A program made the translations under genes and the position numbers. Positions 1 to 64,000 of a stretch of 64,000 nt of DNA are shown piece after piece. The stretch comes from Leptogorgia sarmentosa. Its lineage: Eukaryota. The DNA lies in assembly GCA_964658305.1 (NCBI GenBank), contig OZ210885.1, positions 25,048,001-25,112,000 of the forward strand, in the 5' to 3' direction. Numbering within the stretch: position 1 is the stretch's first letter; the number at the start of each line of letters is the position of its first letter. The notes beneath the pieces were generated by a model that saw only the letters and a program-made list of their open reading frames with translations, made no database searches and had not been told where the DNA came from.

Positions 1-980
1 TATTATATTAATAATCCTCGTTGAAACATTCAGGTCTAATGGCTAATTATGGCCACGTCATATTTAGCCATAGAAAGTTCCATTTCCAAAGAGTGCAATA
101 GTACGAATACTATTGCACTCCAACGCTTCGCACAGTGCTCGCGGTTTATTATTACAGTTTTTTTAATAGACTGTTGCTGAAAAGGAATAGCTTATTTTGG
201 TATTATATAAAAACAAATAAATGAAATAATGAATGTTTTTATTCATGCATGTTACCTGATTGTTGCAATGGTCATTTTTCTTCGTCGTTGGTTGATACAT
301 CTCTATGATCGTGACCCATATGTACGTCGCCACTCTCGATTTTTTGCAAGAATCTTAATTTTTTTGATTGTGGATGTCTCAGTTGAATGATTGTTTATAG
401 GAATGATTCTTAAGATCACCTGCTTTTTACAGGTACTTGTTTCAATGTTTTGATTCCAATTTTATGGTTATTATCATATGGTTTTTCTTTGGAAATTACG
501 GGTTGTTCAACTAAAAAGTTCACCATCCATTTTCTAATGTGCATTATATCGTCAGGTAAATAATCTATGTCTTCATCTGTTGCCATTATGAATGCATTTA
601 TACACATGAATACACCACAACTACACTGTGTCCAAAAATTATATGCAAATGTGTATTTTCAAAATAATGTCAACAACTTTGAGGTTATGGGAATGAAATT
701 TGGCATGCTCTATCAAAACATTAAGATATAGCGTGTAGTCAAATATTTCACTATTCCGGGTGTTATCTAAAAACATATTCCCCCTTTACAATTAAGATTT
801 TTTTAAATGTCCAATATTTATATGCAACTGTAATTTATCCTTGCAACATGTGAAAATGTTAGACCCAGAAAATAAAATGTAAGACAGAGAATGTACAAAA
901 ACACTCTTTTACTTCAATTTCAGGTAAATACACAAAATTATCTTTGTTCCATTTACAAAATGGGACATTTGTAGCTACAG

Positions 981-3294: not shown

Positions 3295-5920
3295 ATTGCA
3301 TATAAAAACAGGACCTATTCTGAGCTTCGAACATTTAGAGCTGCTGTGATCTGTGATTATATGCGCAGGCATTAGTGTTTCCACTTTGCACGCAAAATGT
3401 CATAAATTTCCGTTCAATATTGCACCCCATATTGTGCAAAAATGCACTTGTATATAATTTTTGCACGCAGTGTAGAAGAGTCTCTCTGTCTTGGGATATC
3501 ATTTGGTGAAAGGAAAAGCCAACGTCTCAAATTAAACTTGTGGGCATGACCGGTGAATATAGCTCTAATAAAACCGGTTACTTTCGAAAAGACCGACAAG
3601 TTGGTTACAAGAAGTGAGTCGTAGTATACAAGCATGGACGATTTCGGATAACATGAGTAGAGAACAGTGGTTGCTATTATGAACTGGAAACACAAGCATT
3701 TCGTATTCTAGTGGATCTACAGATAAGACATTGGAAAGGACGCCGCTTTCTCGTGACAGGTTGTCCAACGCATTGTAAAGATATGTTGAGAAGATATGTA
3801 GTCGTGAACTGGGATTACTGATCCTTTGAAGAAAACTGTTAACTACGTCCCCACTTAACCAATTGCCACCTTTTAAGGTTTTTAGGTGATATGATGAGAT
3901 ATTATCACTTGCATAGAATAGTTCTTTTTTGTACGTCCATATCCGTTCTACGTCAGTCTGAGAACGTTTACCTAGTTGCCAAGAAGACGTTTGCTGTTCC
4001 TGCTGGGAATCCTCCATCATATATTCTTCAGGTGTTATTCCTTGATTTTCTTCTTGTTTAGTGTAGAAGCACATGTATACACTTCTCTTGAAATCATTTG
4101 ACTTCACTAAAGTTTCAGAATCCACAATGTTAACTGCTTCATCATCGTATACAAATGCAGTATGGTCGTTATTGAAAATGCAGCTAACAAAATGTCCAAA
4201 ACCAATTGTTGTACCCTTAGCTGCAAAATAGCTGCCCAAAGATTGAAATTTATGTCGTTCGCATCGAAATGTTCTCCAACAATCCCCCTTAGATTTATTA
4301 CCATGTCGAGGGTATTGCCAGTGCTAATTCACTATGATGCATGGCTGGTTTTCTTTCTGAACATTCATTGCAGACTTCGTCTTCTTCTGTTGAAAACCTG
4401 CCATACATCCTGGTCCAAAGAGATGTGGGGATGTATAATATCACATTCCACGTTGTACTGCTTTTCCCACTGAGTGAGTGGCATGTTGGTACTAAGCATC
4501 TGTTGAGCTCTAATGTCGTCAATTTGAAGAGTCGTTCCAGCTCCTCTTTCCCTTCCACTGGAAGCTGCTCGTTGATTCGATTCAAAAGCATGTTCAGGAA
4601 CTCACTTGAATCCTTATGTTCCAATTTATTTGGTGCCATACCACACGATTGGGTGATATTTAATGGTCCTTCCCGTAATTTGAGAGCTGCACTCTTATTT
4701 GGTGGACTCATTAGAAATTTAAGAGTACGAATCGTATCATAAATGAGCACTGTAGAGTACTGCTTAGCCAACAGTTAGACTCGATGTTTCGTATTCCTTT
4801 ATTAGGTTGGGTAATAATAGGATAGGAGAAATCAGCACACCGTTCTGCAATCTGACCAACAGCTTGATCGCCTTGGGAATACACAGAAATTATGGAAAAC
4901 TCGTCGTACAATTTGCTCACACATTCTCTATTCAAGTTCGGACTTGCCAACGTGAAAACCGAACGAAGTACAAAGGGAACAAACGTTTTGTAAATACAGT
5001 TCGTGCAGAAGTAGTTAGTTTCACTTAGTCTTGCAAGACCTGTACAAAAATCGATACACTTACAGTGGAATAATTCATTGCATAGGGAACTCGAAACAGC
5101 ACTAACATTTTCTTTCTGACGACATATGCAATGTGGAGTAGCGGTTAGATTTTCCGGAACGTACGACATTGGTATAGTATGTTTATCAGTGTCGTTGACA
5201 TTCTTTTGTTTCTGATACTTCGTCCACATTTTTAAAATTTCTTTTTTTATTTGATCATACCCATGTATTCGGCTAGAAACGTCAGGCCATACCAATCTTT
5301 CATATTCTTCAAAATTTGTTAAACCCAAGTCTCCAACTTTTCGTTCATTTTTCTGCGGCATAGACGACTTTTCGTTCATTTTTCTGCGGCATAGACGGGT
5401 TAAAATTAAGTTTTTACTGGTAGAATTCAAGTACCTACCCTTCTTATGTGCTGGTCGGCCGGGGCTGGGTTTTTGCCATTGCTCTTCCGGTATTGAAACA
5501 TTATTATCCATGAATTCCATTTCGTCTTCGTGATAATTTTTTGATAAATCCGATGAAGCATCGGGGCTGTCAGTGGGTTCTTTTGCGATAGTGGAGCATA
5601 GCGTCTGCAGTTTCATTTTGGTAGATTGTCTGATATTATTGTTTTCTTTGATCATTGTATCAACAAACAGTCTTTGTAATGCTAGATTATCTCTATAGTT
5701 TTCACCGATGAAGGTGTCCAATCGAAGATGTCTTTCCCTTTTGAATGAGCATTTTTTTTTAAGTTTGAAGAAGTCTTTTTTTTCTCCATTAGTTTGGTTG
5801 TCAGTGGAATAATTTCGAACAGCTGATGCTGCCAAATTAGTGGATGAAGAATAGTCAGCATTATGTCTTGATAAATCGCCAAGCAACAAATCCGACCAAA
5901 GAATGCAAGATGGAAGATAG

Positions 5921-9957: not shown

Positions 9958-12397
9958 TTTCAGAAACAAATATTTAAAACCTTTTGTTCTTACTCCAGGC
10001 ATGTAGATGGCCATCATAAACTAATCCGCTGGAGATTTGTTATTCACGGGGGGTTGATGGTTATAGCCGATGTATAGTGTACCTACGCTGCAGTACAAAT
10101 AACAGGGCAAATACCATGGCATCATTGTTTCTGCAAGCAGTCCATCGTTTTGGTCTACCATCTCGAGTCAGGTCTGACATGGGGACTGAGAATGTGGATA
10201 TAGCCAGATACATGCTGTATCACCCAGAAAGAGGACTAAACAGAGGGAGTATGATCACCGGGAGAAGCATTCACAACCAGAGAATAGAACGTCTATGGTT
10301 GGATGTGAAAATAATATGTCTCTTACTATCAAAACATCTTTTACTACCTGGAACAATGCGATCTTCTTAATCCTGATAGTGAACATGACTTGTTCATTTT
10401 GCATTATGCGTTCTTGCCACGTCTGTGAATGAATTGGTAAATGTTTGGAATAACCATCCCATGAGTACTACTGGAAATCGTTCCCCTTTACAACTATGGC
10501 ATTCAGCAGGGGCGGATCTAGGGTAAGTCAAATAAAGCACGCGACTTACGTAAAATTCGCCTAATTAATATTCAATAAATATTCAAGAAGAACCAGCACT
10601 CCAGTTACATTTTTCATCCTGTTCTCGCAAAATTAATATTCTCGACAAGCGGTCCAGATCAGAAACCACTGATCTCTATGGATAAAGCAAAATTTGCCAA
10701 TCCAGCCATTTGATTGGCTTATACACGTTTTGCTTTATGTTTGCGGGGGTCTGCTTAAATTTGACGTAATAGTGCAGAGACCTGATTGGTCGAAACCGAA
10801 TTTCGCTTTATTCTTCGCTGGGGTCTGCTTTATTCTCATTAATATGCGAGATTTTTGGCAATTGTGATTGGTCGGTTCGCGATCTACGTAGGGTCTGCTT
10901 TGTCTGCTTCGATTTTTGACTCATCAGCATGCGCGTTATTCGTTCTTTTACTGATCGTCCTGTTATTGAGAGTGTCCTCAAGTTGTAAGTGCGTATCAGT
11001 AAAAATTAAATCGAGCGGTGAATGCTTTTATTCAAAAATGATTGAATACGAGCACGTTAAAGCGGCATTTGAATCAAACGACGAAGTTATGATAAGAAAG
11101 GCGAACGAGAGCCTTCTGAAACAACTGAATGTCGCTTCGGATTCGGCGAAGACAACAGACGCGCTTCTGGCAGCTGTCCGTGACCCTGGCTGTACTCTCG
11201 CCAGAAATTTTGAGGCAGAGACGTACGTCCCATCTTTTGTCAGAAAACAAGGGAAAAAATGTACAGCAATAAGGTAAGAATCTGAATCTTTACTTGGAGC
11301 ATTAACAGTTGTAAATATATGAAATATCAAATATGTTATAGTTGACCTTTGAGAAAATTAGCATACGTTTGCGCGTCGGTGCAAAGGTCATATTAATTCA
11401 TTTCATTATTCATATTCATGTGCCTTAAACAGTTAAACTCTTCATATAATCTATAAACACGGTCTTATTTTGTATTTATATATTTAATAATATCAAATCT
11501 CTGATTGCTCAGACTGAGCTCAGTAAATTTTGCTTCTCTGGTATCGACCACATGTTTTATAACACGATGACATGATTCACATGAAATACAATCGGTCTTG
11601 CAGACCAGGTTGAGACTTGAGTCAGTCTGGTTGATGAGTTTTTTTCAGATTAGTTTATTTGGTCAATTATGTTATTATTAAGAGGCTACTACTACTAATA
11701 ATAGTTAATATCTACACTTTATAGTATAAATTAAATATGGAATTGCACTTTTTGATTAATTTTGAAATTTTTGTAGGTCAGAAGCTTCTGGTAATTGTTT
11801 GTATAGTGCTGTGTCATTGGTAATGGTAGGTGACAATACTTTAGTCAAAACTCTTCGAATTTTGACATCAATTGAGCTTTTCCTCCATCCAAATTTTTAT
11901 TGCCAGCATCCTTGCTTCTTGTCTCTTATAAAAGAGCATGGTGAGCACTTTGCAAAAAGTGTTGCTAACCTTTTACCACTGTCAGTCTCAGTTGAGTGCT
12001 TAGATACTAGGTTAACCAAAGGTTGCGGTCACACTAGCGCTAGAATTGTGCTTGCTTGGACTTAATCCACTTGAATCAATCAACATGTCAGCCTCCAAGC
12101 ACGCTTGATAGTGTGACCGCGCAAAACGCATAATCCGAGCTTGCTTGAAATTTGATACATTTTGCTTAAAACTACAAACGCACCGCAGCAAGCTTCAAGC
12201 ACGGTAGAGACGGTGACTGAACTGCGCTAGAATGCATATCTCAAGAGGATTATAAAGCGCGACCAATAGAAGCGCTCCCTGTCTAAAAGCATTAGAAAGC
12301 TCGCAATAAATTGTATAACGCGCCAAATTTCGAAACACAGACACAAATATTGCAGGCGAACACACGATCTTTCGTATAGTCTAGTTAGAACATCAAA

Positions 12398-13393
12398 ATG
12401 GATGAAACGCTGAACCGCACGCGTCCCAGTGAAAGTGCTGCTCCATCATATCCATACATCCAAGAGGCCTTTCCGAATCAATTCATTCCAAACTCCGTCT
12501 GGATGAATACACAAAATAATTCGCAGGCGTGTTATGGTGGCCCGTATTTTCCTTATGTTGCACAACCACCGAATATATCTACATCTCCTACGTCGCAAAC
12601 CCGTACAGAAAATGCTTCGCCCACCGCCACTAGTTCGACGAAATCAAGCAATGCGTACGATTCTGTCGATTCAGATCCCATCGCTCCGAACGTATGTGAA
12701 ATTGGCGCCAAAGGCAATACAACTACAAGATGGAGGGAAGAGCAAACCACCGTGTTAGTCCACGAATGGAAAGAGAGAATCGAGGAGTTAGAGAGCAGCA
12801 GGGCGACAGAAACATGGCGTCACATTGTCGACGCTGTGAACAAGGCTGGAACAGCGAAGACCGTGAAACAATGTAAAAACAAGATACGGAATTTAAAGCA
12901 GGCTTATAAAGAAGCTAAAGCGAACAATAACAGGACGGGGAGCTCACCTAAGAAAAGCCCATTCTTCGATACTTTCGATGATGTTCTTGGAACAAGGGCG
13001 GTGGTTACCATGCCCGGGGTAATCCAAAGTGATTCAGTGGATGAAACAGCAACGCTATCACACGAATCGGACGACGAAGAATCGGATGACTCGGACAGTA
13101 CTGAAAGTACATCCTCTCCAGAACAAAATGCCACAGCCAAACGAAAGAAACAACCTCAGAAGCCCGCAAGAAAACCGAAGAAACCTCGTGTCACTGCGGC
13201 GACGGCCATGATCGACTTGACGGAAAAATTAGTTGATATGCAACGATCGCAAGCTGAATTGATGGCTAAGGCACAATCACGCACAGAAGAACTCATGTTG
13301 AAAATGGAAATGGAGCAAAGAAAGCTGGATGAGGAATCAAGGCGAAGGGATCAAGAGTTCTTCTTGCGTATGGCAGAAATTATGAAAAAGTAG
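12398..13393 (+). CDS. Harbinger Myb/SANT-like (trihelix) DNA-binding protein, 331 aa
   Basis: RWREEQTTVLVHEW..W..I......KTVKQCKNKIRNLKQAYK...PFFDTFDDVLG, plus an acidic tract and a coiled-coil C-terminus. Confidence 0.9.
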   Translation: MDETLNRTRPSESAAPSYPYIQEAFPNQFIPNSVWMNTQNNSQACYGGPYFPYVAQPPNISTSPTSQTRTENASPTATSSTKSSNAYDSVDSDPIAPNVCEIGAKGNTTTRWREEQTTVLVHEWKERIEELESSRATETWRHIVDAVNKAGTAKTVKQCKNKIRNLKQAYKEAKANNNRTGSSPKKSPFFDTFDDVLGTRAVVTMPGVIQSDSVDETATLSHESDDEESDDSDSTESTSSPEQNATAKRKKQPQKPARKPKKPRVTAATAMIDLTEKLVDMQRSQAELMAKAQSRTEELMLKMEMEQRKLDEESRRRDQEFFLRMAEIMKK

Positions 13394-13653
13394 AACAGTA
13401 TATAGAACCTTTACAAATTATTCAAATAAGAACAATATTATTATAATATTATATATATATATATCATTTCTGTTTAATTACAATATCATTAAGTATATCA
13501 ATAATAAACTATGTAAAAATAGGATTTAGCAAAATTGAATTTTTAATACAAATATATATTCAACCTGAGTATCAATGTTAATTTGCCTCTACATGACATA
13601 AGTTTTATAACTACCCAATTTTTCTTTAAAATAACTTTGCAAAAATAGATAGT

Positions 13654-14937
13654 TCATCTTAGATACAGTTGGATTGATTGGCGAATTGTTTGGGCTACGG
13701 GATTTTGAACTATTCCCCTGTTTTGCACCTGCTCGTCGGCCTGCATCCCTTCTCTCTCCAATGCAATGATCTGTTGCAGAACTTCGTCGTCATCAAATTC
13801 TTCTCCTGCACTCTGACAGAAATTGTGCAAAATACAGCAGGTGAGAATAACTTCTGGAATGTTGCAAAATTTGTTATCGAGGCATTTCAGAAGAATTCTC
13901 CATCTAGCCTTAAGTATTCCAAATGCTCGTTCGACAGTGGAGCGGGCAGACGACAAAGTTTTGTTGTAGTTCCTTTGAGAACGGTTGAGAATAACGTTTA
14001 TTGGATAAGGTTTTAAAAGCCATGGTAGCAGAGGATATGCTCCGTCTCCGAGCAAAAGTGGACGGATCGTAACCCCATTTAATGAAATGACTGGCTCTTT
14101 AAGAACATCGCCATTCTCTGCCTTCGTAAAAATGTTGCTCGCGCGTAATATCCGAGCGTCGTGCATACTACCTGGATATCCGATAGCAGTGTCCAAGAAC
14201 ATCAGATTTTCTCCAACCACAGCTTGCATAGTTACACTATAGCGGTGGTGGCGGTCAAAATAATCAAATGGTTCATCGGGCGCAATGATTTCGATGTGCG
14301 TACCATCAATAGCTCCAACAGCTTGTGGAATTTTGCATTCATCCTGGAAAAGGGCAATTGCCCTGGCTGTTTCATCGCGATTGGTAGGGAATTTGATGTA
14401 ATTGCCCACGAAACGATTCAACGCTTTGCAAAATTCTTTTGTGATTGTCACGCAAGATGATTTTCCAACATCGAAGTGGGTCGCGATGGTCCGAAAGCTT
14501 GCACCTCCAGCCAGACGCCATAAAGCAATAGCCACTCGCTTTTCAGGAGGAATGGCATCTCGAAAAACAGTGTTTCTCTTGCATATTTCCGGCCTGACCA
14601 TTTCCACTAGTCGCAAGAATGTGGTTTTCTGCATGCGAAAATGTTCCTTCCAGTAACGGGATTGACGCTCGTCTTGGAGGATTACTTCAAACCATCCAAC
14701 TCTCGGTCTAGGAATTACCCAAAACTCACGATCGAGCCTAGGGTAGATCACTTTGGCAACTGCGAGAAGAAGCAATGTTGTTGTCGTCTGAAGCATCTGC
14801 AAACGTCGCATGTTTTGATCCATTTGATGAAGCAGGAGGTGCATTCGTCGCCGTCTGCGATTTAGCGCCCTTCGTTTTTTAGCATTGCGAAGATGCTGAT
14901 ACATAAAGTGAAGTAAAAGCAAAGAATCTCTCTCCAT
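13654..14937 (-). CDS. Harbinger DDE transposase (HARBI1-like), 427 aa
   Basis: FRM...F, GAIDGTHI, GYPGSMHDARI, LLGDGAYPL, RSTVERAFGILKARW and CCILHNFC. Confidence 0.95.
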   Translation of the reverse strand: MERDSLLLLHFMYQHLRNAKKRRALNRRRRRMHLLLHQMDQNMRRLQMLQTTTTLLLLAVAKVIYPRLDREFWVIPRPRVGWFEVILQDERQSRYWKEHFRMQKTTFLRLVEMVRPEICKRNTVFRDAIPPEKRVAIALWRLAGGASFRTIATHFDVGKSSCVTITKEFCKALNRFVGNYIKFPTNRDETARAIALFQDECKIPQAVGAIDGTHIEIIAPDEPFDYFDRHHRYSVTMQAVVGENLMFLDTAIGYPGSMHDARILRASNIFTKAENGDVLKEPVISLNGVTIRPLLLGDGAYPLLPWLLKPYPINVILNRSQRNYNKTLSSARSTVERAFGILKARWRILLKCLDNKFCNIPEVILTCCILHNFCQSAGEEFDDDEVLQQIIALEREGMQADEQVQNRGIVQNPVAQTIRQSIQLYLR

Positions 14938-17900
14938 TTACAATTTATAATATGAAAGTGCTCCCAAATGTGAATGGCGCGTAATTTGAACTTGCCAAAA
15001 ATACCATAGACACTTTATCTGTCATTACAATCTTAAGCAAGCATAATTTCTTTTTCAGTGTGACCGCGACGTGCTTGCTCAACATTCTAGCACTTGCTTG
15101 AATGACGTCACAAGCAAGCACGGTAATCCTTTGCTAATCCGCAAGCACAAGCGCTAGTGTGACCGCAACCAAAGATAGCTTGGTCAAACAGGAAGCTATT
15201 TTAAATTGCACTGACAAAAAGTGGTCATCATTTTTATGTGTTCTTGGTCTTTCTTCAGTTTTACATAGAAACATTAATACTTATTACCCAGATTGTGGGG
15301 AATCCAGAAATAAACTGTTGTTTAATCGGTTTGTTCAACCAAGGGATGAACAAACACATAATGTAACTGGTAATGACATCCATATTTTATTTTGTCGTGA
15401 TGGCACTATTAAACCTGGGGAGGTCTTTCAACCCAACCATTTTGTTCCTCTTCTTTTTCACCATATTTCACAGAAACGCAAAGCTGTTGTAGATGTGAAG
15501 GGTTCTGCAGTGACAAAGAAGCCAAAATCTCTTCCATCCTTTTCTGAAAAAGTTGCCAAAAAATCTAAACCTGATGCCAATATTTTAAATTTTTTTACTG
15601 TATCTGAAACCCCTATAGTTCATCAAACCCCTATTATGAAGAAGGCCCCTAATGAGAGCTTTACTTCTGCAGCTCAACTTGCTGCTCATGAAGTTGAAAC
15701 AACTGTGCCAACCAGTTCAGGTTTGGCTCCAACAAAAGTCTCTAGTAGCAAAATCTCCATTCCTGCTAAGAATGTGAAAGATACCAGTAATAAACCACTT
15801 AAACCACCTATTAATCATAACTATGATATAGCCTTTTATGGGGAATTGGTTAAAGGTATGGATGATTCAGAAATTTGCAAACTTATAAAGAATGTATTTA
15901 AGCCAGATGAGAGTTATGTTTTCCCTAAGACCAATGGTAGAAGCTTCAGATATCAGTGGTTAAAAATTCATAGTTGGCTTTGTTATTCACCATCAAAAGA
16001 TGGTGCATTTTGTTTGTCATGTGTTCTTTTTGGGCATCGCTTTCCTGACAAAGCCCACAAAATAAGTAGACTTTTTTCACAGCCATTTTCCTACTGGACT
16101 AATGCTACCAATACTTTTAACCGCCATGCTGGGCGTGGAACTGGAGGTGATTTGGGCTTGCATGCATGTACTTTCCCCCTTTTGACTTCATTACTTGCTA
16201 TGATGTCTGGAGCCACTGTCCCCAATATAGGAATCATGATCAATGAAAACCTTCAAAAGGAGGTTGAGGAAAACAGGAAAAAACTTGCTCCAATTGTTGA
16301 CACAATAATTTATTGTAGTCGTTCTGGTTTGCCTTTGCGTGGTCATCGTGACGATTCCAAATATCACCCAGAGGTCGGGGGTTACTCCAATGGGGGTGTT
16401 GGAAATTTCATTGAAGCCCTTAATTTCAGAGTTCGAGGAGGAGATAAAGTTTTAGAAGACCACTTGAGGACTTGTGGGAAAAATAGATCGTATATTTCCA
16501 AGACAAGCCAAAATAAATTAATTGTTTGTTGTGGTGATGTTATTACTGATAGGCTTGTTAATGAGGTTAAGGAAAGTAAGTTTTACACGATTCTAGCAGA
16601 TGAAGCTGCTGATTCATCACACAAAGAACAGATGTCACTTGTCTTGCGTTTTGTTGATTCTGAAATGAATGTCAGAGAGGAGTTTATTTCATTTTTGCAG
16701 TGTAAATGGGGTTTAAGTGGGGCTGACCTTTCAAAACTTATTTTAGAAGCACTTGATAATTTAGCACTGCCTATTGAAAATTGCAGGGGACAGGGGTATG
16801 ATGGTGCTGGTGCTGTCGCTGGCCATATAAATGGTTTGGCTGCACATATATTAAGACTCAATCCCAAAGCACTTTATACTCATTGTTTTAGTCATAGGTT
16901 GAATTTGTCTGTATGTGATTCTTTGGGGATAGTTGAGATAAAGAACATGCTTAAGCACGTAAATGAAGTTTCACATTTTATTAGAATTTCTCAGACCCGT
17001 AGCATGCCTTTTGAACAGAATATAAAAGAACATAGCTCTGATACTGAGTCCAGAAAGTCTAAACTGGTAGATGTTTGCAGGACCAGATGGGTTGAACGGG
17101 TTGAAGGTTTGAACACCTTTCAGGAGCTTTTTGTACCACTGTATCACACTCTTGATGACATGGTTAATCAACGGGGAGATGGATTCAACCCTTCCCTTTC
17201 TAGTGATGCTCTTACTCATTTACACCGTATAGCTAAGTTTGATTTTATTGTAGTTTTAGTCATTACCAGACATGTTCTTGATATAACTTTACCTGTGACA
17301 CAGTTATTGCAAGGGAAAAGTATAGACATAATGGATGGCACACACTTAATAAATAGTTTAAAGAATGAATTAATATTAATAAGGAATTCTGTTGACACAT
17401 ATCATGATATGTGGTATGAGGAAGCCTTGCAGTTGGCAAGCAAAGTTGATGTTGAAGAGTCTAAGTTGAGGACGCTCGCTGGTAGACAAACGACCAGGGC
17501 AAATCCCCCTTTCCAATCTGTTTCTGAACATTTTAAACGGACCATAACTATACCACTTATTGACCATTTTAATTCCTCCTTAAAGGCACGATTTGATCTA
17601 GACAGTGTCAATGTTTATAAAGGGTTGTGTTATACCAGAAAAAATGTTATCTTTAAGTAGAAAAGGTATTGACTGGAAAGAAGAGTTCAAACCTGTTGCT
17701 TCTTTTTACTATGATGACTTGCCCAACCCTTTAGCATTAGATGCCGAGCTCTCGTTGTGGCACACGTATTGGAAATCGTATACTGGACCATGTCCTTCTA
17801 ACATAACTGCTACCTTGAAATCGGTCAACTTTGTGAGTTTTGAGAACATTAAAGTTATACTACGTATTTTGGGAACACTCCCTATTACCTCTTGCGAGTG

Positions 17901-19846: not shown

Positions 19847-20218
19847 TATATGTGTGAACAAAATATGAAATAACAGAACCTCGTTCATCCATAAATTTCA
19901 ATAAACCAGGCTTTGAAGTAGATGTTTGCCACCAGTCACAATGTGTAAAAAACAGTTTGACTGTAAAATCAACAGTTTCACTAACCTTTATGCGTGTGTC
20001 ATCGGCTTCCCCGAGGGGGGGGACCCCGGGGAAATGTGGGGACTTACATAAATTGGTTGTACAATCTCTAAATATTTTCCCACTCTTAGGGCAATATAGT
20101 TTTGCAAAGGCCCCACATCTAAGGGCAACTCTACAAGTCTAGGTGTGTAAGTGTCCTTTATTTATTTTATTGGACAATCAAAATGAAACAAAAAATGAAC
20201 AATATATATGATACATTA

Positions 20219-20437
20219 AGGTCGATTTCCACTAAGAAAAATAAGCATGGGACTGGGCCGGAACAAAATTGAAGCCACGCATGGGCTTTCAGTATCAATT
20301 TTCTGTTCTAGTTTGAACCTGTGATCCTATCGTAAAGATTTGAAGTGTTTTTAGTCCGGTGATGTGGATAATACAAGCTGGAAAATAGTTCAGTCCGATC
20401 CGATCCCATGCTTATTTTCCTGAGTGGAAACTAGCCT
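20219..20437. mobile_element. Harbinger-type MITE
   Basis: Imperfect TIRs AGGTCGATTTCCACTAAGAAAAATAAGCATGGGA vs AGGCTAGTTTCCACTCAGGAAAATAAGCATGGGA, with TTA TSD. Confidence 0.8.
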
Positions 20438-20460
20438 TTACAGTTAGGAAAACAAGTCTT

Positions 20461-23322
20461 CTATAGTTCATCAGTGTCTTCTAAACACAGACCACAGATG
20501 TATTGTTCCATATTGTCAGCATCTTCCTGTGTAACACTCACACATGCACCATGAAACCATTCGTCGCAAGAGTCGCATTGTATCATAAGACCATCCTCTC
20601 CCTTCCTGCAAACGCAGTAAACATCAGCTTCGTCAGAATGATAATCTTTTCTCATAGATTTGCTTCTCTTCTTTTTATTTCTCTCTCTTCTAGCGAACTT
20701 TGCTACGTAATGCTGAACACATATTTCGGCATCTTCTCGTGACAACAAATGAGTCTTCGCTAAATTATCTATATCTTCTGGTAAAATATCCTTGTTCGCT
20801 TGAACAAACTTCTCAATTTGAGCTCTTGGTGGTATCTTCTGAGAAGCATCAGGACCCTTTTCTTTTACCCATTCAATGTGCTGCTCAGGTTTTAAGTAAT
20901 GCCCAGTGCAATTGTTACTACATTTCTTGCATGCGACACCCCATTTTCTTTCAGGGTCCGGAATAGGTAGAGGGAGAAACGACAAAGCCGGACCACCCGG
21001 ATACCATGTGGGTTCTGCAGACGGTTTTCCTTTTAGGCATTCAGGGTGTGGACATTCTGGACTGTAACATGGTTTAAGCATGAATAGATAATTTGTTGGT
21101 AACTCTGGGATCATATGCCTCTTGCGTAGTTCCCAAATTTGTGAAAAATATTGATATTCATCTGGGTGTAATTCTTTTAGGGCTGCTTTTGACTTCTTTG
21201 AACCTCTAAGAAATGTTAAAAGGTTTGACCGCCGATCACAATACAATTTACTGACTTCATCTTTTGCTCCTTTTACAAGGTGGATCTTTTTACCAAAACA
21301 TGGTGTACCAGACACGGTACTAATATACACTTCCGTCGCCGCGTTCAGATTCTTCTCCAGCTTTTCCTCACAGAGATGACCATCGTCATCCAGGTTTGAC
21401 CCATGAATTGTCGAAGGTATAAATACGTTAGAATGCCCAAGAGCTAAACACCCATTTTGGAGTTCAACTTTATTTAAGTAGCTTCTGCCGCTATACCTAG
21501 CTGACACAACTGTACATAATGATCCTTGTTGTAAATGCCTTTCAGTCCATTGAAATTGAACCTCTTGAAGGCTGGGGCTTTCATCCATTGCGCCATCTAC
21601 CCGTATGCACTCAACTTTCTTTCCTTCAAATAATGACTTATACTCAGGAAGTGAGGCAACCATTTTAAGATCCGCAGAATGTTGACCTGGATGTTTGGGA
21701 ATTATCTTATGCGGCTTGACCACACCGATACAAACTACAGGTGTATTCTCCGTCTCCATCAAGAGGTACGAGGTTGTTTGAAGCACTGAGGAATATCGGT
21801 TAACAAAGTCTGTCCGTGTTGTGAGTTCGGGTGTTAATTTAGTTTGCAAAACCGAATGCTGCTTGTGGGTGAATGTGCTGTCTAGGCGAAACCCAGAAGC
21901 ATCGTCACGATTGATAACAATTTTATCCAAACCATTCTTCAGCTGAATATAATCCAGGATCTGGTACATTGAGCAACTCCACTTCGCGTCCACATTCAAT
22001 TTGACATTAAAACCTTTCCTGGCTCGTCTGGAGACTATCTGTGCTGCTCCCCAGTACCTTTTGCTCGAAAGCTTTCTTTTGTTGTGCACACTACAAAGTT
22101 GTACAACTGTTCCATATCCAAATTTAGTGCTATATTTTTCTTCCAAGTACTCTTTGATTCTGCTGTATGTTAATTTGGGACCGCGTTTAACATTTCCGCT
22201 AAATGTGAGTAAGCCTGTTCGCCGCCATGAATCTGCCCCTATTCGTCTTTCGATAGCAAACTCTTCAATTGCCTTTCCGATATCTGGGTATTTCTGAACA
22301 GTCTTGCTTACCCTTGCGGGTTTGCGTCTCTGCAACAAACATTTTTTAGCCACAAGTTTGGAGATTCGTCGATTCTTCTGACGGCGAAAAATTGCACGCT
22401 GTTTCTTAATCTTTGCTTTTACTTCTTCACTATACAAAGGCAAGTCCTTAATAGCAACCCAGTCTTCTGGATTATCAGATTCTGAATCTGTTACAACGCT
22501 CTTCTCAGAATCACTATCACTTGACAATACAGTGATGTTAATGTCACTGTTATCATTGGAATCAGCTTCACTTCCTGTTTCTGTTTCACTAAAGACAATT
22601 CCTAACTCTTGAAGAGACAGGCCTTCTCTAATGGACAAAACTTCATCTACGGCATCTCGTATGTCACGGTACTGTTGTACGGCTTCTGCAACTGCTTCTC
22701 GCTCCTTAACAAGACTTGAAATTCCAAGTTCTTTCTTTGCCCTGGTAGCTGAAAAATTAGTTGTTGCAGCCACTCTGATAAGTTTTTTATCTTTTTCACT
22801 GGAAGCTAGTTCACAGAGTATCTTCAGATTTTCCCTTGAAATACCCTTTTGCATCAGTTCCGTCGGAACCAACATATTTAGAAACTTTACAAATCTTGCG
22901 TAGTTCATATCCGGCCTGTTTTCTGCGACATAAAGTTTGTCTTTAATTCTGAACACAGCAACTGGTAGTTGCATTAATCGCCGTACAGCCTTGTCAGATT
23001 TGTATTCGCAGTCAAAACACTTCCGAAAGCTTTCTGAAAGCGGAACTAAACCATGTTTCGATAGATACTTGGCAAACGTTATCAATGATGAACACTGCTG
23101 GCAACTCAACTGATTATGTATTTTCTGACAGTACATTTCTCGTGCAGTTACAAATTCTTCTAACGAAATATCACTAATATGGGACAAATATAAATCATTA
23201 CTTTTTTTTACACCATCCGTCAAGTTTCTTCTTATGTATTTTGTATATCTTTCGGACAGTTCATTTAATCCTGTAGCCGTCAAGTTCTTAAAACATGCTT
23301 TGGCTACAGGTTCGTTTAAACT
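20461..23322 (-). CDS. Zator-like DDE transposase ORF2 with C-terminal PHD finger (about 950 codons, no early ATG)
   Basis: INRDDASG, RVDGAMDESP and SGRSYLNKVELQN resemble Zator DD/VDGGPDENP/GRSAFNRVE motifs. C-terminal VYCVCR..MIQCDSCDEWFHGACV..YICGLC. Confidence 0.8.
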   Translation of the reverse strand, partial: SLNEPVAKACFKNLTATGLNELSERYTKYIRRNLTDGVKKSNDLYLSHISDISLEEFVTAREMYCQKIHNQLSCQQCSSLITFAKYLSKHGLVPLSESFRKCFDCEYKSDKAVRRLMQLPVAVFRIKDKLYVAENRPDMNYARFVKFLNMLVPTELMQKGISRENLKILCELASSEKDKKLIRVAATTNFSATRAKKELGISSLVKEREAVAEAVQQYRDIRDAVDEVLSIREGLSLQELGIVFSETETGSEADSNDNSDINITVLSSDSDSEKSVVTDSESDNPEDWVAIKDLPLYSEEVKAKIKKQRAIFRRQKNRRISKLVAKKCLLQRRKPARVSKTVQKYPDIGKAIEEFAIERRIGADSWRRTGLLTFSGNVKRGPKLTYSRIKEYLEEKYSTKFGYGTVVQLCSVHNKRKLSSKRYWGAAQIVSRRARKGFNVKLNVDAKWSCSMYQILDYIQLKNGLDKIVINRDDASGFRLDSTFTHKQHSVLQTKLTPELTTRTDFVNRYSSVLQTTSYLLMETENTPVVCIGVVKPHKIIPKHPGQHSADLKMVASLPEYKSLFEGKKVECIRVDGAMDESPSLQEVQFQWTERHLQQGSLCTVVSARYSGRSYLNKVELQNGCLALGHSNVFIPSTIHGSNLDDDGHLCEEKLEKNLNAATEVYISTVSGTPCFGKKIHLVKGAKDEVSKLYCDRRSNLLTFLRGSKKSKAALKELHPDEYQYFSQIWELRKRHMIPELPTNYLFMLKPCYSPECPHPECLKGKPSAEPTWYPGGPALSFLPLPIPDPERKWGVACKKCSNNCTGHYLKPEQHIEWVKEKGPDASQKIPPRAQIEKFVQANKDILPEDIDNLAKTHLLSREDAEICVQHYVAKFARRERNKKKRSKSMRKDYHSDEADVYCVCRKGEDGLMIQCDSCDEWFHGACVSVTQEDADNMEQYICGLCLEDTDEL

Positions 23323-25627
23323 AAAAAAGGGTGTTGGTCAGTGTTGTCCTCCGTTGCTAATGTAGAAACATTGGATAAACTGGGTGGATGCACTTGCGAT
23401 TCACTACTTTCCTTTGCATCTGCTGACTTCTGATTTGCTATGTCCTGTTCGCTAACAGAACCTAGACTAGTATTTGAATTAAATTTGCTGCCAGTAGAAT
23501 TAACCATATTTTCTAAGACTTTGTGTGGAACTGAATCTGCTCTTATCAACCTTGGAACAAATTCATTATCTGATGAAATATCGACATCGGTATCAGCTTC
23601 TGCAGACACGCTGGAAGAATTTTCTCTGTGTGGAAACGACTTTCTCTTTTTCTTTTTCAGACGATATTCACTAGATCTAGCTTCTTTAGACTGAAGCTTT
23701 TGGAGCTCTAACTCTAACTTCCTCTTTTTAGTATTTTCTTCCTGGATACTTTTCGTTATTTCAGTTGCCTCCAAAAATCTCTCGGTATTCGAATACTTTC
23801 CTTTCTGTTGCTGCAAGAATTTGATCGCTTCTGTTTGACTTGAAATATTTTCCGTGAGCTCAGTAATTCTTGCTTCTCTTACTTCCTGACGTACATACTT
23901 CCTCTTTTGCTTTTCTTCACGACAGCCAAATATTTGGGATCTGGAAGATTTCTTGCTGTAATTGTAACCATCATTGTGCACTTTTTCCCTGGCGAATGAT
24001 AGCAATTTCGCTCTGTTCATGAGGAGGGAACCATCATTCTTACAAAGCTGGTAACTGGCCATGTTTACAGCCTCTTGATACTTTGTAAGTGGTTTTCCGC
24101 TACCACCGTATATTCTACTTTTATCACACAAATCTGACTCTGGTATATTCAAAACTGTTGCAACTTTGGTAGTGTTGTGGTCAACCTAGAGATAAATATG
24201 TAAACATCTCAATATTGTACCAAAAATTAGGTATGCATAACTTGGTAAGAAATGTATCAACAGGTATGTATGTATGTAGAGTAATGTGCTCCCCAGGCAG
24301 TACAATTAAGCAGATGTCATGTACTGTAAAATACCTACTATAAAAATATTACCCACCTTTGTTCTTGGCCCAATTCTAAGTTGGCCACCACTTATCACCA
24401 GGGTTGCTTGACCACTAGCCTTATCTGACCCTGTTTAATTAAATACAATATGAAAGTAGAAATTGTGGACATTGTTAATTATATATTGTCACAACTTACA
24501 TGTCATTTCTTAAATTGTGGGTTCTAACACCAGTAAATAATATTACATGGTAGATGATGTAAGGCAGAAAGGAGGCCATGACAAAGGCTGGTTGCATGAT
24601 ATTATTGGATCTTGTTATTGTCAAGTTCGTTTAGTAGCCATAACTGTAAGTCTTTTAAAACAATAAGGAACTCCATTTGGTGCAAAATGCTGGTGAAAAA
24701 ATCTGAGTAGTACATTTTCCCCACAGAAGCTAGGCTTTTACAGTAGGTTTACAAGTAGAGCAAAACTTACCTACAGTGCTTGTGTTTAAAGAATTTGAAT
24801 TGTCTTCTGTTGAGCTGGACTCAGCACTTGCATGGACCAAATCAGGTGTGAAACGACTAATCTTGTCACTGTACTGTATTAAAACAATGCACTGGTCTAT
24901 ACATGTATGCCTACGGACCTATTTAACTACTTTTTTAATCCAGGCACAGTGAATTTATCATAAGACAAGTGGAAGTAAGATTTCTTGAAAATTGATAAAA
25001 AGAAACTATTTATAGAGTTGACGTATTATTACATTGTTTATATATTTAATAGAAACGGATAAATTTACCTGGACACTTCCACAATATTGCTTGTCTTGAC
25101 GAATGTTCACTTTTACTTTATCTTTGTTTCGTAAGTTATTAATATCTACGTCTATATATTCTTCCCAGTCCTTATCATAACGTTGAAAACAAACGGTAGA
25201 GTATTCGTCCAGTTTCACGTTGAACAGCTCTACAACAATTTGAGCCTTGTCTTTGCTTTTTAGTGATGCATCAAGATATAAAACCTTCTTCATTTCATTG
25301 TATTCCATTAATACGCGATCCTTAAAAATGGAAACGAAAATTACTGTATATAAAGTCATAACAAATTATAATAAAAGTAAAGCCAGAGCTTCAAATATTC
25401 AAACCAATCAACGGTCGAGTATTCACAAACACAGGGAAATATTTATATAAATATTCATATATTAAGAATAGTAGTTTTAATTTTAATATGCGCAATGTAT
25501 TAATTCAGCTTTTAGTATATCTATATTAAAATACACAAATTGAAATATACGTTGGTATTTCTTATGAAGTTCTTACCTGAACAATATCTGTGACAATATC
25601 ATCACTTGCCGAGTACAAATCCGCCAT
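23316..25627 (-). CDS. Five-exon ORF1 of the Zator-like element, 449 aa, unknown function (coiled-coil/basic)
   Basis: Exons 25627-25577, 25320-25069, 24873-24771, 24430-24357 and 24185-23316. All introns are GT-AG, phases are consistent and there are no stops. Confidence 0.75.
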
Positions 25628-25678
25628 GATTGCAAATACATGTGGCCAAGTTCGGTTTTCTTTCGTATCGAATCGTGA

Positions 25679-25747
25679 TAGCTTGCTCGCAGCCCCCGCC
25701 CGCAAAATGAAAACAGGAAAGTAGGGGCGGGGGCTGCGAGCAGGCTA
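25679..25747. repeat. Miniature TA-flanked hairpin element
   Basis: TAGCTTGCTCGCAGCCCCCGCC ... GGCGGGGGCTGCGAGCAGGCTA. Confidence 0.75.
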
Positions 25748-27249
25748 AATCCTGACAGATCGCAAAATAAACAACATGCAAAATCCCATCATTTCTCCGA
25801 GGTTATTGGGCAGCCGCTTACGAAGATCCTATATTTTCCCCACATGTTGGGCAAAATTTTCTTTCAATGTCTCCACAAAGTTACTAACTCACCCTACTAT
25901 GGCCCGGGGTCCCCCCCCTCGGGGAAGCCGATGACACACGCATTAACTTACATGGGAAATCCCCAATGTAAAATGCATTAAAATGCAGACTGACTTTTCA
26001 TTGCATTTCATATGTTCTGTTTCCTTTTTCCAAAAATGTCTGTTCATGAACAATAACTTAAAAGGAGTGTGTTTTTTTACATTTTCCCAAAACCTTGCTT
26101 TGCAAAAGAAATAGCCTTATCAAAGTTTGTTTTAAAGCTCTCATAGTTAGAATGCGCGACTGGGATATACATAACCATAGGACAAGTATTTGCTTCAGGC
26201 AACAATTTGCCAGTTGAATCTTCAAGATAATCCACACTTAGCTTTTGTGTAGCTGCTGAAGGTAGTGAAGGATAGTTTGTCCAAAACTGTACCAGGTCAT
26301 ACAGATTCTCCTCATTACCATCTTTGTCTACAAACAAATTCAGGAAAACTCGGATCTTTTTATTGAAATCAAACACAAAATGCAAGAATTACATGAAGTT
26401 TGAAGATGGCTCTCTCAAGCCAATCAAATTTGTGTAACATCTGTTTTCTGTATTTGATGTCATGAAAAAGGTCGATAGGTGTATGAATTTATTTCTGTAT
26501 TGGAGCATGTTCACCAAACTCACCTCTTCCATCCAGTTCTTCAATGTGCTGATCAAGCCACATTTGGGCCTGTCTGCAGTTTTCATCTGTTGATTGAGAA
26601 TACTCCAAATGCCTTTTTGACTCACAGATACTCCGCAGGAATATTTGTGAGTCTATGCTATCGGTCTAGCTCTTCATTAGTATTCTATTGTTTTATAATC
26701 CTCCAGCCTGCTTTGCGTGCTTGATAAGCATAAAACCTGGCAGACCAGTTTGAAAATTCTCTTGATGTTCCTCGTGTTTTGGCGTTCAGAATAAAATACG
26801 GTGAGTTTTTTATATGTGCATACATTAAATTGCATTTGTCAATGTGCTTAATTAAACAGTGCATTGTTTACATGACCTTTGAATATTCTTGTCGGTTGAA
26901 TCGGATTTTGTTCTGACTTGGAGTTTTGCATTCACGTGTGCTGACGAACTCGTAATTTCTTTGTTTTTATGTAAAAAAGATCAAGTCATACTTCAAGAAG
27001 TTCAACCAGGAAGCACGGTAAATTATAAGATATAATATTAATTGCAGCAGTGATTTTGTTTACTATTGAAGCAAAGACCAAAAAGTGAGAGACAAAGTTG
27101 ACGACCTTAAATTGTATTCCGTAATTTGTATCCGTATCCATTTGCCTAAACATGAGTGATTTGAATATTGTTTGTGTTGCAGCTGGTGGTTGGAATGTTT
27201 TCCTACCTGTTGGTAATGAGTTAAGTTATGAGACAATGAGTAACAGTTT

Positions 27250-30200
27250 GATGTTGGTGGGGATGGTGACTGTTTTTTTAAAGCTGTTTCACACCAATTG
27301 TATAACAGTCCTGATTATCACCAAAATGTTAGAAAAGCAGGTATTGATTATATTTGTGCACACCCAGAACAGTTTATCGAAAGCATTGCAGGCAAGTCAT
27401 GGTGTGAGTATATAATTGATATGTCACATCAAGGCACTTGGTGTGATGCACTTATGGTACAAGCTGTTGCTGATACTTTAAATTGTATAATTGACGTTAC
27501 TGAGTCAGCTGTTAATTTCAGTGAGACAGCTATTGTTCATCCTACAAATAGCATACAAAATCCAAATATTATATATATAGGTCATTTGGGTGAATTTCAT
27601 TATGTATCAACGATAAGTATAGTGAGACCTGAAAAAAAACTTGACCGTGAAAAGCTGAGTAAGTCAAGATGGCCAGGCATGAGAAAAGATGTGAGTTTGC
27701 AACATTCGCAAAATACAAAAAGTACCTTTCCACCTCTGAACTGTTACATAACAGAAAAGAAAACAAAAAAGAGGCAGTTGAATACCAAGGTGAAGAGTAG
27801 CATTGAGAAGAGACAACGAGTTGTTGCTAACAATAAGTTTATCGAATCTTTTCACAATAGCATTGAATGTGGCCCTGAATATATTTGTACTTGTTGCGAC
27901 CAGTTGTGGTATAGGTCATCAGTACAGCTTTGCAATAGTGGCAAATATAACTTGTGTAGCCCAAACATGATAAAGATGTGTATTACTGATGTCAAAAGTG
28001 TGAATAACAATGAGTGGATTTGCAATAGTTGCCATTCAAATTTGCTGGCCGGTAAATTATCTGTGTTTTCAAAAGCAAACAACATGAGTTTTCCTGAAAT
28101 TCTCAATTTGACATCATTAGAAGAAAGAATAATATCACCACATATTCCTTTTATGCAGTTGTGAGAACTTCCCAGAGGAGGTCAACTGAGTATACATGGA
28201 AATGTTGTTAATGTTCTAGCTGATGTGAATACAACAGTTAATTGCTTACCAAGGCCCTTGAATGAATTACAAACCATTCCGTTAAAACTCAAACGACGTA
28301 TTGCATACAAACATCATTATTTGTTGGAAAATATAAGACCATTGAAGGTTTTAAAAGCAGCATTTGGTTATGGTTAAGTATTTGGTTGAGACTAGTCAGT
28401 TATTTAAAGATGAAGGTATTGATATTGATACTTCCTACCTTGATACATGCAACCAATATAGCAATGAAAGTCACCCATTGCAGTTAAATATCAATGAAGC
28501 ACAGTATCAAGAATTTGGGCAGTTGTGTGACGAAACTGATCTGTGGTCAGAAGTTGAAGAACAACCATCAGGGGTGATGGATACTTTGTTGGTTGAACCT
28601 GATGTTACTCAGGATTATGATAAAATCCTCAGTTTTGCACCAGGTGAAGGAAACAGACCTCTTGGGTTGTTTGTTGACCAAAACTCGGAGCACTTATCAT
28701 TCCCAAACTATTTTTTGTGGAAAGAAAAGATCCGATGAATGCCAAGTTCCTGTCCAATATAGTACAATTTGCAAATGGGAGTTGCGTAGTCGTGATCGTA
28801 GAGCTGCTGAATCAGTTCCCAATATTTTTTACAACCTGAAAAAACTCCAGATCAAGGACAGTGCTGACAGTTCGAAAGTGCAAAACAAAAGGTAAAAATA
28901 GGTACACAAAGTGTACATGTATCTGCGCCCATGTAGCTTGATGATCAAGTCTTATTTGTTTTCAGCTTTTCGATACACGCATCTTATCTGTCCCTAATAC
29001 GCGATCTGATAAAATGATTTACTGCTAGGGAATAGGCGAATAGCGCAAATACTAATTCCTTTCAAGACGTGAGGTTGTGTGGAGACGTATTCAATACTTG
29101 ATATAAGCTTTCGTGACTATCTCGCATTCCGGAATTCCCGCGATCATATATCAAATTGCATAAGGAATTGAAACTTGACGACATATGATATCGCATTTTA
29201 TGTTATTGCGTCTTTAAAATAGACACAGCGCTTTGCAATTGTTTGTGAAAAATGTGGCTCTCTAAAAACCAAATTTACCCTTTTCAATACCGTATCATAA
29301 TAATATATTTATATACAATATATTCCGTCCATTCATGCGGATTTGCGTAGACGCTAAAGTGTATGTATGATCGGTATGCGCATTGCGCGTAGGTTAAAAA
29401 CAGAATACTTGAAACTATATATGATTTCGTTTGTTTTGTCTCGCGTTTAATAAACGCACAAACCCGTTATATTACAAGCTACGAAATCTATTTTCCTGGG
29501 ATTGAATGTTTCAACCATTCCGTATGGCGAAGCGTCAAAATATAGTGGATATTCCGTGATCACAATGACACCGCGGGCAGTCCAAACATGTACAGTGTGT
29601 GAGTGCGACAGTACCGACACGCTAAAGTATCGCGCTAAAGTATCGTATGGAAAATATACGCGCTATTGTGTCAAGACATTAAACTCTTTCATAACCTTAA
29701 ATATTCGCTGTGTTCAATTGTATTAATTGCGTCATGATATTTTTGCTTTGATGATCTAAATTGCATAGCGAACGCGAACCTCTTTAATTAATATCTTTAA
29801 AAGCAATGCCAATGTCTGCAATTTGCGTCATGATATTTTTGCGTATAAATTTCCTTAGTATAAATAGTGTTCTAAACGGCGTAAACGCTCATAAATTAAC
29901 CTCTATTTCACTGAAGTCACTCGTCGCTGCGAACATTATATTTTCTTTTTATCTGGATATTCATGCGAAACAAAATCCACAATCAAACACATCACCACTC
30001 TTTAGCTCGCGCCTATATCAGCTGCCATTTTGTAATATTTAGCCCGCAAGAACTGCTTTGCACACCTTCACGTTGGTTCCCTTAAATTTGTGGGTGGGCT
30101 CAGTGAGAATTACATCATCTCAATGTTACGTTGTCGCCTATTGGCTAAATTTAACTAACGAATTCGCTGATTGGCTGCAAGTTAACAGCTAACAACTAAC

Positions 30201-39860: not shown

Positions 39861-40675
39861 AATTTGTAGATCGGATGTCTACGACCATACCAGTAGGAAA
39901 ATACCGGTTCTCGTCTGATCACCAAAGTTAAGCCTCGGCGGGCAAAGTTAGTACTTGAGTACTTGGATGGGTGACCACCTGTAAATACTTCGTGTCGTAG
40001 ACTTGGTAGATTTTACTGTATGTGTGTTTGCAAATAGCTTTGCTTTCAATGTAAATTTCACGGATTTTGTTATTGCTACATCTGGGAATACTTTCTATCG
40101 TTGTTCTGCTAAATTTTATTGTTTGCGTATTTGTAAATATCATTGCTTTCAATTTCAACTTCGGGGTTTTGTTATTGCTACCCGTTTAAAAAGTGTAACT
40201 TCCATAAACGGATCTCTACGAACATACCCACGCTGGCGCGAACTAGCTGTAGATTGGGTCATTTCCGGTTGACTTCTATTATGCAATGCGCCCGGGATCG
40301 AGTTTGGGCAAGAAAATCTGTGCTAACCCGCATTTCCTGTCTTTTAATGAGCCCTTGTAAGTACGGGTAATATTTAGCTGGAAATGGCGGGCAACAGGAA
40401 GGATCTATTGAATGTGAGCTACACTATGATATGAATTTCGCCTGTGTTTTCGCCTCAAATCGTCTGATATTCATCTATGATTGAGAGCGAAATTGTGCCT
40501 CTTGGTGTGCAAGATAATTCAAAGTAAGTCATTCAAGATATATTTGTGGGGTTTTGAAGATCAAATATAAAAATTCAAAATCATACGAATATTGTATGAT
40601 ATTTTTTCTCATTAAAAATGTATTTATTCATGACCAGTCGTGCTTGACCAAAATTTTAAATCAATGCTTTTTCAG

Positions 40676-45318: not shown

Positions 45319-46063
45319 TTTGAATAATACAATCATTTTGCCGCTGATCTCATACTAACTGGAACGGCGAATGACACATTTTCCGGGGGTTTGGCGCCAG
45401 CGTGCCAGTAGGAAAATACCGGTTCTCGTCTGATCAACGAAGTTAAACCTAGGCGGGCGAAGTTAGTACTTGGATGGGTGATCACCTGGGAATACTTAGT
45501 GTCGTATACTTGCTAGATTTTGTTGTATGTGTGTTTGAAAATAGCTTTGCTTTCAATGTGAACTTCAGGGATTTTGTTATTGCTACATCTGGGAATACTT
45601 TGTATCATTGTTTTGCTAAATTTCACTGCGAAAACACCGGTTCTCGTGCGATCATTGAAGTTAAGTCTAGTTAGGCAAAGTTAGTACTTTGACGGGATGA
45701 CCATCTCGGAATACTTTGTATCCTTGTTTTGCTAAATTTTATTGTATGCCTATTTGTAAATATCATTGCTTTCAATTTCAACTTCGGGGTTTTGTTATTG
45801 TTACCTGTTTAAAAAGTGTAACTTCCATAATCGGATGTCTACGATCATACCAGTAGGAAAATACCGGTTCTCGTGCGATCACCGAAGTTAAGTCTAGTTA
45901 GCGAAACTTAGTACTTTGACGGGATGACCATGTGGGAATACTTTGTATCCTTGTTTTGCTAAATTTTATTGTATGCGTATTTGTAAACATCATTGCTTTC
46001 AATTTCAACTTCGGGGTTTTGTTATTGTTACCTGTTTAAAAAGTGTAACTTCCATAAACGGAT

Positions 46064-46183
46064 GTCTACGACCATACCAGTAGGAAAATACCGGTTCTCG
46101 TCTGATCACCGAAGTTAATCCTAGGCAGGTGAAGTTAGTACTTGGATGGGTGACCACCTGGGAATACTTTGTGTCGTAGACTT
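46064..46183 (+). rRNA. 5S rRNA variant or pseudogene (one of the best-preserved copies, 120 nt)
   Basis: Full length, with terminal helix GTCTACGAC/GTCGTAGAC and recognisable internal control region sequence. No immediate oligo-T terminator. Confidence 0.7.
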
Positions 46184-63900: not shown

Positions 63901-64000
63901 AACGTTCTGCGAGTAAGTCATTACAAAGTTTAATATCAAAATTTCATGATATTGTCTCACAAGGTCCAGTATACATTTGCACTTGTTGTGACCAATTATG

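Follow-up and report, generated by a model that had tools for sequence, protein, structure and literature searches.

How is a transposase made when its open reading frame (ORF) begins with a long stretch devoid of ATG codons and lies out of frame with the ORF that precedes it? This question is raised by a stretch of 64,000 nucleotides (nt) from Leptogorgia sarmentosa (assembly GCA_964658305.1, contig OZ210885.1, positions 25,048,001 to 25,112,000), which we call the window. Its minus strand contains an intact DNA transposon of 5,952 bp, with both ORFs, the terminal inverted repeats (TIRs) and the target site duplication (TSD) preserved. Programmed -1 ribosomal frameshifting on a U_UUU_UUA heptamer very probably yields a minor fusion protein of about 1,400 amino acids (aa), and a downstream hairpin is likely to stimulate it. 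What is directly seen is the split into two ORFs in -1 phase, with the heptamer and the stem, and the fact that these features are conserved across the family. An original prediction, made from the letters of this DNA, had proposed frameshifting; it is supported by sequence comparisons, in which about 22 families repeatedly show an ORF2 in the -1 frame, a slippery site in phase where ORF1 ends, and a hairpin 3' of it. The features at the junction of both ORFs, in window positions, are:

23316..24185, minus strand: last coding exon of ORF1, with an NCD2-like domain, a coiled coil, a low-complexity linker and the C-terminus PFLV-stop
23322..23328, minus strand: slippery heptamer U_UUU_UUA, in X_XXY_YYZ phase; C_CCU_UUU overlaps it, one codon earlier
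23311..23321, minus strand: spacer of 11 nt, which contains the ORF1 stop and may pair weakly as a lower stem
23270..23310, minus strand: hairpin, a predicted stimulator, with a 9-bp stem CCUGUAGCC/GGCUACAGG (23310-23302 / 23278-23270) and a 23-nt loop
20461..23337, minus strand: ORF2, intronless, in the -1 frame, with a Cys/His cluster near aa 70-82, a DDE core (D478 or D479, D581, E625; DD43E) and a C-terminal PHD finger (aa 908-951)

The last codons of ORF1 on the minus strand are CAC CCT TTT TTA GTT TAA, with the stop at 23318-23316. The in-phase U_UUU_UUA which had been predicted is present at 23328-23322, and a single sense codon (GTT) separates it from the stop. Relative to ORF1, the open frame of ORF2 (23337 to 20461) is shifted by -1, and both overlap by 19 nt; ORF2 had been described as lacking ATG for about 60 codons, and in fact its first ATG is found 62 codons past the heptamer. 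The perfect 9-bp stem mentioned in the same prediction does begin 11 nt 3' of the heptamer and is part of the minimum free energy fold. Folding z values for this hairpin are -3.84 and -5.01 in two folding windows, and none of 200 shuffles equals it. A simple pseudoknot scan detects none at this site and no consistent one among 12 junctions, and Rfam has no match at the site. Another heptamer, U_UUA_AAC, is found just 3' of the site; we have rejected it, as it is in the ORF2 frame and cannot link ORF1 to ORF2.

This arrangement has been compared with contigs of sequencing runs. A contig from run X1 (21107-25696) and another from run X4, a different study (23184-23407), have an identical, gap-free junction. 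Copies diverged by about 7% (22-26 letter changes per 349) are found in four runs from three studies. None of them has an indel at the junction, and heptamer, spacer and frame are all kept, which is the conservation in other copies that the original prediction had suggested looking for; three letters differ in the loop, and one at the top pair of the stem. As these other runs and diverged relatives preserve the frame, the junction is not an assembly or copy error.

More distant relatives, mostly known from marine samples, come from one metagenome scan, in which the best 80 of 84 confirmed loci were studied. Both the ORF1 domain and the N-terminus of ORF2 are contained in 26 of these loci; with the window they amount to 27, which may be grouped into 22 families. 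The junction tests cover 23 families, defined from the ORF2 side. The transposases of these relatives (about 22 families) are 39-66% identical to that of the window in the best segment. ORF2 is in the -1 frame at 25 of the 27 loci, corresponding to 20 of the 22 families, and in all 18 families where ORF1 is unbroken into the region where ORF2 is open. Overlaps range from 7 to 58 nt; in L005, L013 and L027 the overlap is formed only by the 7 nt of the heptamer. In 22 of 23 families, against 1.0 expected, the overlap contains an in-phase U_UUU; 19 of 23 have a heptamer of a known slippery class (0.35 expected), as listed in PMC5009743. By families, the classes are U_UUU_UUA (7), G_GAU_UUU (8) and A_AAU_UUU (4). 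The comparison with HIV-1 made in the original prediction is valid for the 7 families with U_UUU_UUA, window included, but relatives also use the other two heptamers. On a quick tree, made without bootstrap, the three classes do not form separate groups but are intermixed, so the slippery site appears to have been rewritten many times while retaining its place. ORF2 has its first ATG 18-123 codons downstream, and in 20 of 22 families this ATG falls within the conserved N-terminal domain. A single uninterrupted ORF2 is present in 13 of 18 families.

The RNA downstream of these sites also has a characteristic structure. In the set of 23 used for folding, where L067 replaces L056, the 60 nt 3' of the site have a median z of -2.46, and 14 of the 23 reach -2 or lower; for 227 control windows of these loci the median z is +0.27, and one of them reaches -2 or lower. 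The stems are unlike in sequence between families. When arms are swapped between families, the 5' arm finds its best partner in the downstream sequence of its own family in 12 of 22 cases; in controls at three offsets this is so in 0, 2 and 0 of 22. In 13 of 23 families the distance from the heptamer to the longest stack is 5-8 nt, and in one it is 4 nt.

A test based on ORF1 proteins gives a similar picture. The profile of the ORF1 domain detects 1,676 representative proteins at E 0.001, of which the best 150 have been examined. Tails of at least 45 aa, as required for the test, are present in 108 of them; the other 42 are shorter and were excluded. Phe is found among the last four residues in 64 of these 108 proteins, versus 9.5 expected, and the residue preceding the last Phe may be encoded by NNU in 74 of 75 cases. 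A Phe near the C-terminus with such a neighbour is the protein footprint of NNU UUU ahead of a stop. Among close ORF1 relatives, 6 of 8 end in FL(V/A). This test is only partly independent from the DNA test: A few proteins apparently correspond to the same elements as the loci.

Several observations must be set against frameshifting. The 11 nt spacer of the window is longer than the usual 5-9 nt, five U_UUU_UUA families (window included) have spacers of 11-13 nt and, for the most part, weak stems. The longest stack is far from the site in 4 of 23 families, and no hairpin has been found in L015 and L022. In three families (A_CAU_UUU, G_UCU_UUU, A_CUU_UUU) the P-site tRNA would re-pair poorly, and in L056 the site is absent. 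Two loci, L042 and L062, are not in the -1 frame; both are decayed, and ORF1 in L062 still ends with G_GAU_UUU and a stop. In the lineage P0048/P0281 there is a continuous ORF and the Phe motif is absent. The window's own stem shows no compensatory changes, close relatives lose its top pair, and the decrease in substitutions is not significant (1/36 vs 19/147, p 0.06); of the covariation proposed originally, what we do find is that hairpins in different families differ in sequence and keep their position. Finally, the DNA statistics were designed after the loci had been seen and the families share ancestry, so their p-values are overstated. As to the spacers, 11-14 nt are known in some viruses (PMC5009743). 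The longer spacer of U_UUU_UUA families might possibly be due to a weak lower stem, or to a shift completed one codon later.

The original prediction had also considered that other copies might have one continuous ORF. This is mostly not the case: None of the best 150 ORF1 representatives is fused to ORF2, but a minority of three lineages or records are in frame. Besides P0048/P0281, they are the single records P0015 and P0035, which read QRPFFRLNGP and QDFSVSP at the junction and resemble the predicted -1 product. Looking for longer proteins with a fused ORF1, we have found P0015 alone, which is weak evidence. These in-frame forms indicate that ORF1 and ORF2 can be a single polypeptide and that the frameshift is not universal.

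The strongest rival explanation is splicing, to which we give a small chance. The U-run and the following AG would be a 3' splice acceptor, and alternative splicing would join upstream exons in frame to ORF2, skipping the last exon of ORF1. The CCTTTTTTAG of the window does resemble an acceptor, the donor of exon 3 is in phase 1 with a phase-1 YAG at +18, and a YAG is found at most 7 nt from the heptamer in 13 of 22 families (for example, TTTTCAG in L006, L007 and L009), which should be added to the points against frameshifting. Nevertheless, the first AG may be anywhere from +1 to +36 nt away, in phase 2 in 11 families, phase 1 in 10 and phase 0 in one, and in 18 of 22 families at most five of the 10 nt ahead of the U-run are pyrimidines, this stretch being mostly purine-rich. 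In the window, TTTTTTAG is in phase 2, which does not match the four predicted donors (0, 0, 1, 0). An AG which is not conserved in place or phase argues against an acceptor. The original prediction had mentioned this AG as a caveat, but a conserved position or phase of YAG after a pyrimidine tract is not found in the 22 families. Splicing would also leave unexplained the fixed -1 overlap, the GGA/AAA/UUU triplets in the P-site and the hairpins, and the domain that it would skip is retained in in-frame relatives.

Other explanations appear even less plausible. RNA polymerase might slip on the T-run and add one U, placing some mRNAs in frame, as in some IS elements. The in-frame junctions of the protein records P0015 and P0035 could arise from one added T, but many families have only four or five T's, which makes transcriptional slippage unlikely; in addition, hairpins 5-8 nt 3' and triplets allowing tRNA re-pairing 5' are translational signals (PMC5009743). 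Its chances seem very slim, and just as slim are those of a separate translation of ORF2 after the ORF1 stop, by reinitiation or by internal or non-AUG initiation. Public gene models do begin at internal Met codons of ORF2 (P0028, P0032, P0038), and an ATG overlaps the ORF1 stop in L016. Independent initiation fails because in 20 of 22 families the conserved domain has already begun before the first ATG, 18-123 codons downstream; besides, it would not require conservation of frame, heptamer and overlap. Finally, the copy could be dead through the loss of one base from a homopolymer, or the assembly could be wrong, an explanation of practically negligible probability. The nearest in-frame record, P0015, is 84% identical. 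On the other hand, the split arrangement recurs in independent runs and relatives, ten ORF1 records (267-268 aa) of cluster P0127 end in TFLA, the element has both ORFs, TIRs and TSD intact, and the -1 arrangement of 20 of 22 families already contradicts this explanation.

If frameshifting takes place, a single spliced mRNA would carry both ORFs. For most ribosomes translation would terminate at UAA, which yields an ORF1 protein of 449 aa, while a minority would pause at the hairpin, where the tRNAs for Phe and Leu would slip back by one base and pair again. Translation would then proceed as ...QHPF(F/L)SLNEP... into ORF2. The original prediction of a fusion of about 1400 aa agrees with the five-exon model, from which about 1,401 aa are expected, including the ORF1 domains, the DD43E core and the PHD finger. 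The result might be a low dose of transposase, by analogy with bacterial IS1/IS3. All predicted introns lie 5' of the ORF1 stop and ORF2 is uninterrupted, so junction-dependent decay of the mRNA would presumably be avoided. The other features of the element are:

19991..25942, minus strand: whole DNA transposon; its terminal inverted repeats begin with TGCGTGTG, and the target duplication is TAA
25892..25942, minus strand: 5' terminal inverted repeat, about 50 nt, 89% complementary to the 3' repeat
19991..20041, minus strand: 3' terminal inverted repeat, partner of the 5' repeat
25577..25627, minus strand: predicted exon 1 of ORF1 (gene model), which contains the ATG
25069..25320, minus strand: predicted exon 2 of ORF1, whose domain matches the N-termini of the longer ORF1 relatives P0270, P0273 and P0230 (E 1.5e-6 to 2.6e-4)
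24771..24873, minus strand: predicted exon 3 of ORF1 (gene model)
24357..24430, minus strand: predicted exon 4 of ORF1 (gene model)
20162..20171, minus strand: two AATAAA poly(A)-type signals, 3' of ORF2

The five-exon ORF1, modelled from sequence, has GT-AG at its four introns and no internal stops. Two stretches within predicted introns, 24224-24307 and 25344-25528, are swapped for other letters in relatives. AATAAA is absent from the ORF1 stop to 21474; besides the signals after ORF2, there are two internal ones. The 3' untranslated region also includes a small high-copy element with 37-nt inverted repeats, at 20226-20430. TGC..GCA ends are present in all five elements having both termini, and four of these five have matching target duplications: TAA/TAA in the window, L025 and L026, TTA/TTA in L028, while those of L008 are mismatched. 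Named relatives of the element are found in Paramuricea, Montipora, Exaiptasia and Diadema. The prokaryotic genome collection contains two decayed copies of the family, L081 (archaeal) and L082 (bacterial), in metagenome-assembled genomes of 4.3 and 16 Mb; the corresponding contigs are probably host contigs in bins. In L081, which is outside our counts, ORF2 is +1 after a downstream break, yet U_CCU_UUU, the stop, a 6-nt spacer and a 13-bp stem are present.

The last exon of ORF1 matches Pfam NCD2. This domain of NAB co-repressors is detected in the ORF1 domain (23940-24101, minus strand) and in 12 of 15 aligned relatives, with a best E of 1.5e-12; to judge from these matches, NAB may share a domain with this transposon lineage, or may have derived the domain from it. 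In ORF2, acidic residues with DD43E spacing are invariant in all 23 aligned cores. A wide structural search with the full ORF2 model places its predicted fold closest to Mos1 (Z 9.4, root-mean-square deviation 3.2, 167 aligned residues), followed by Metnase (Z 9.1, 3.3, 169 aligned), a likeness to the IS630-Tc1-mariner group; a Foldseek search with a model of the core gives no match at E 0.001. The nearest Atlas clusters to the core (residues 330-830), at 0.94-0.95, include unnamed proteins which are commonest in Mucoromycota, so fungal relatives may exist. The Atlas lead for the transposase is ISAzo13 at 0.83, below the reliable range, and PF07592, used to test for ISAzo13/Zator, has no match in 42 and 23 members.

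The element is difficult to place. Zator elements have GG..CC termini, unlike the TGC..GCA termini found here. Neither Zator, ISAzo13 nor the IS630-Tc1-mariner group shares the presence of two ORFs with NCD2-like and PHD domains. Like Zator, this element has a 3-bp TAA/TTA target duplication: 3-bp duplications are a Zator feature (PMC10045372, PMC12905397), and those of amphioxus Zator-1 are TAA/TTA (PMC12905397). The core of this transposase has no Pfam match, which has also been described for Zator (PMC5751038). The duplication and the modelled fold point to the neighbourhood of Zator and IS630-Tc1-mariner, without a sequence link to Zator or ISAzo13. The name Troyka was considered and rejected, since Troyka is a retroelement.

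Similar strategies are known in other systems. In the OrfA-OrfB arrangement of the IS1/IS3 families, low-level frameshifting fuses the ORFs and sets the transposase level (PMC5009743). As in these bacterial elements, we find an upstream ORF and an overlapping catalytic ORF in the -1 frame, but the window element is eukaryotic and contains introns, a PHD finger and U-rich shift sites of the type found in eukaryotes and viruses. No relative of the element has been found in plasmid records or in the viral collection. Viral -1 signals include U_UUU_UUA in HIV-1 and G_GA-type heptamers in umbra-, diantho-, mesoni- and insect flaviviruses; the heptamer classes, the 3' stem and the stop right after the site are similar, as in G_GAU_UUU_UGG_UAG of pea enation mosaic virus (PMC5009743). 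Unlike them, our signal is part of a chromosomal DNA transposon with a predicted spliced mRNA, and its spacer in the window has 11 nt.

Among eukaryotes, frameshifting has reportedly been described in the ciliate DNA transposon Tec2. The direction is +1 in this case. Tec2 also differs in that the gene codes for a tyrosine recombinase, in a ciliate with genome-wide frameshifting. For another ciliate DNA transposon, TBE, frameshifting is reported or required as well (PMC5009743). In KAT1 of Kluyveromyces lactis, a gene for a DDE transposase, a -1 frameshift is overcome by programmed frameshifting, which limits expression (PMC4763223, PMC4316626). The likeness to our element is clear, but KAT1 is a domesticated, non-mobile yeast hAT gene, while here we find intact elements with TIRs, another fold group, many families and a turnover of heptamers and stems. 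Conserved -1 frameshifting in animals is mostly viral, or corresponds to retroelements or genes derived from them (PMC5009743). For DNA transposons that are mobile in animals, our searches of the literature outside subscription journals, supplements and Repbase have found no description of -1 frameshifting; a Repbase note could exist. The original prediction was aware of no case in animal cut-and-paste transposons; KAT1, which is domesticated, provides a eukaryotic precedent. Background literature also includes PMC7175516, PMC7386202, PMC5718144, PMC5405496, PMC8533490, 10.1101/2021.09.26.461848 and PMC2872659.

What would be new here is a recoding signal conserved by a family of mobile animal DNA transposons, with frameshifting itself held at high confidence; IS1/IS3, yeast KAT1 and ciliate Tec2/TBE were known before. 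We also consider it fairly probable that an unassigned animal cut-and-paste lineage related to Zator and mariner, with TGC ends, TWA duplications, DD43E and a PHD finger, has always made its transposase by -1 frameshifting, swapping slippery sites and hairpins of the viral type, and that its abundant ORF1 protein is a regulator. If this is true, it would be the animal counterpart of IS1/IS3 control, an extra layer of transposase control next to splicing and silencing, with hundreds of natural chromosomal frameshift signals. The 1,676 representative ORF1-domain proteins would then provide a large natural set of shift sites, including the weak A_CAU_UUU, from which rules for heptamers, spacers and stop codons may be obtained. 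It would also account for intact elements that annotation pipelines call truncated or split genes: A frameshifted transposase need not be dead.

The rest of the window contains several other mobile elements and repeats. A Tc1-like element with 46-nt inverted repeats is found at 621-3475, a Harbinger-like pair at 12389-14937 (a Myb/SANT ORF on the plus strand and a DDE_Tnp_4 ORF on the minus strand), a hAT-type DUF4371 ORF at 15138-17660 (plus strand) and a weak Transposase_21 (CACTA-like) ORF at 55511-57100 (plus strand). Two ORFs with OTU protease domains, at 27244-28164 and 62075-62956 (both plus strand), probably belong to other mobile elements. There is also a near-perfect inverted repeat of 411 nt at 52946-53826, a tandem array with a 90-nt unit at 63144-63977, and an irregular array of eleven diverged 5S rRNA-like copies at 39877-40003 and 45392-47881 (plus strand).

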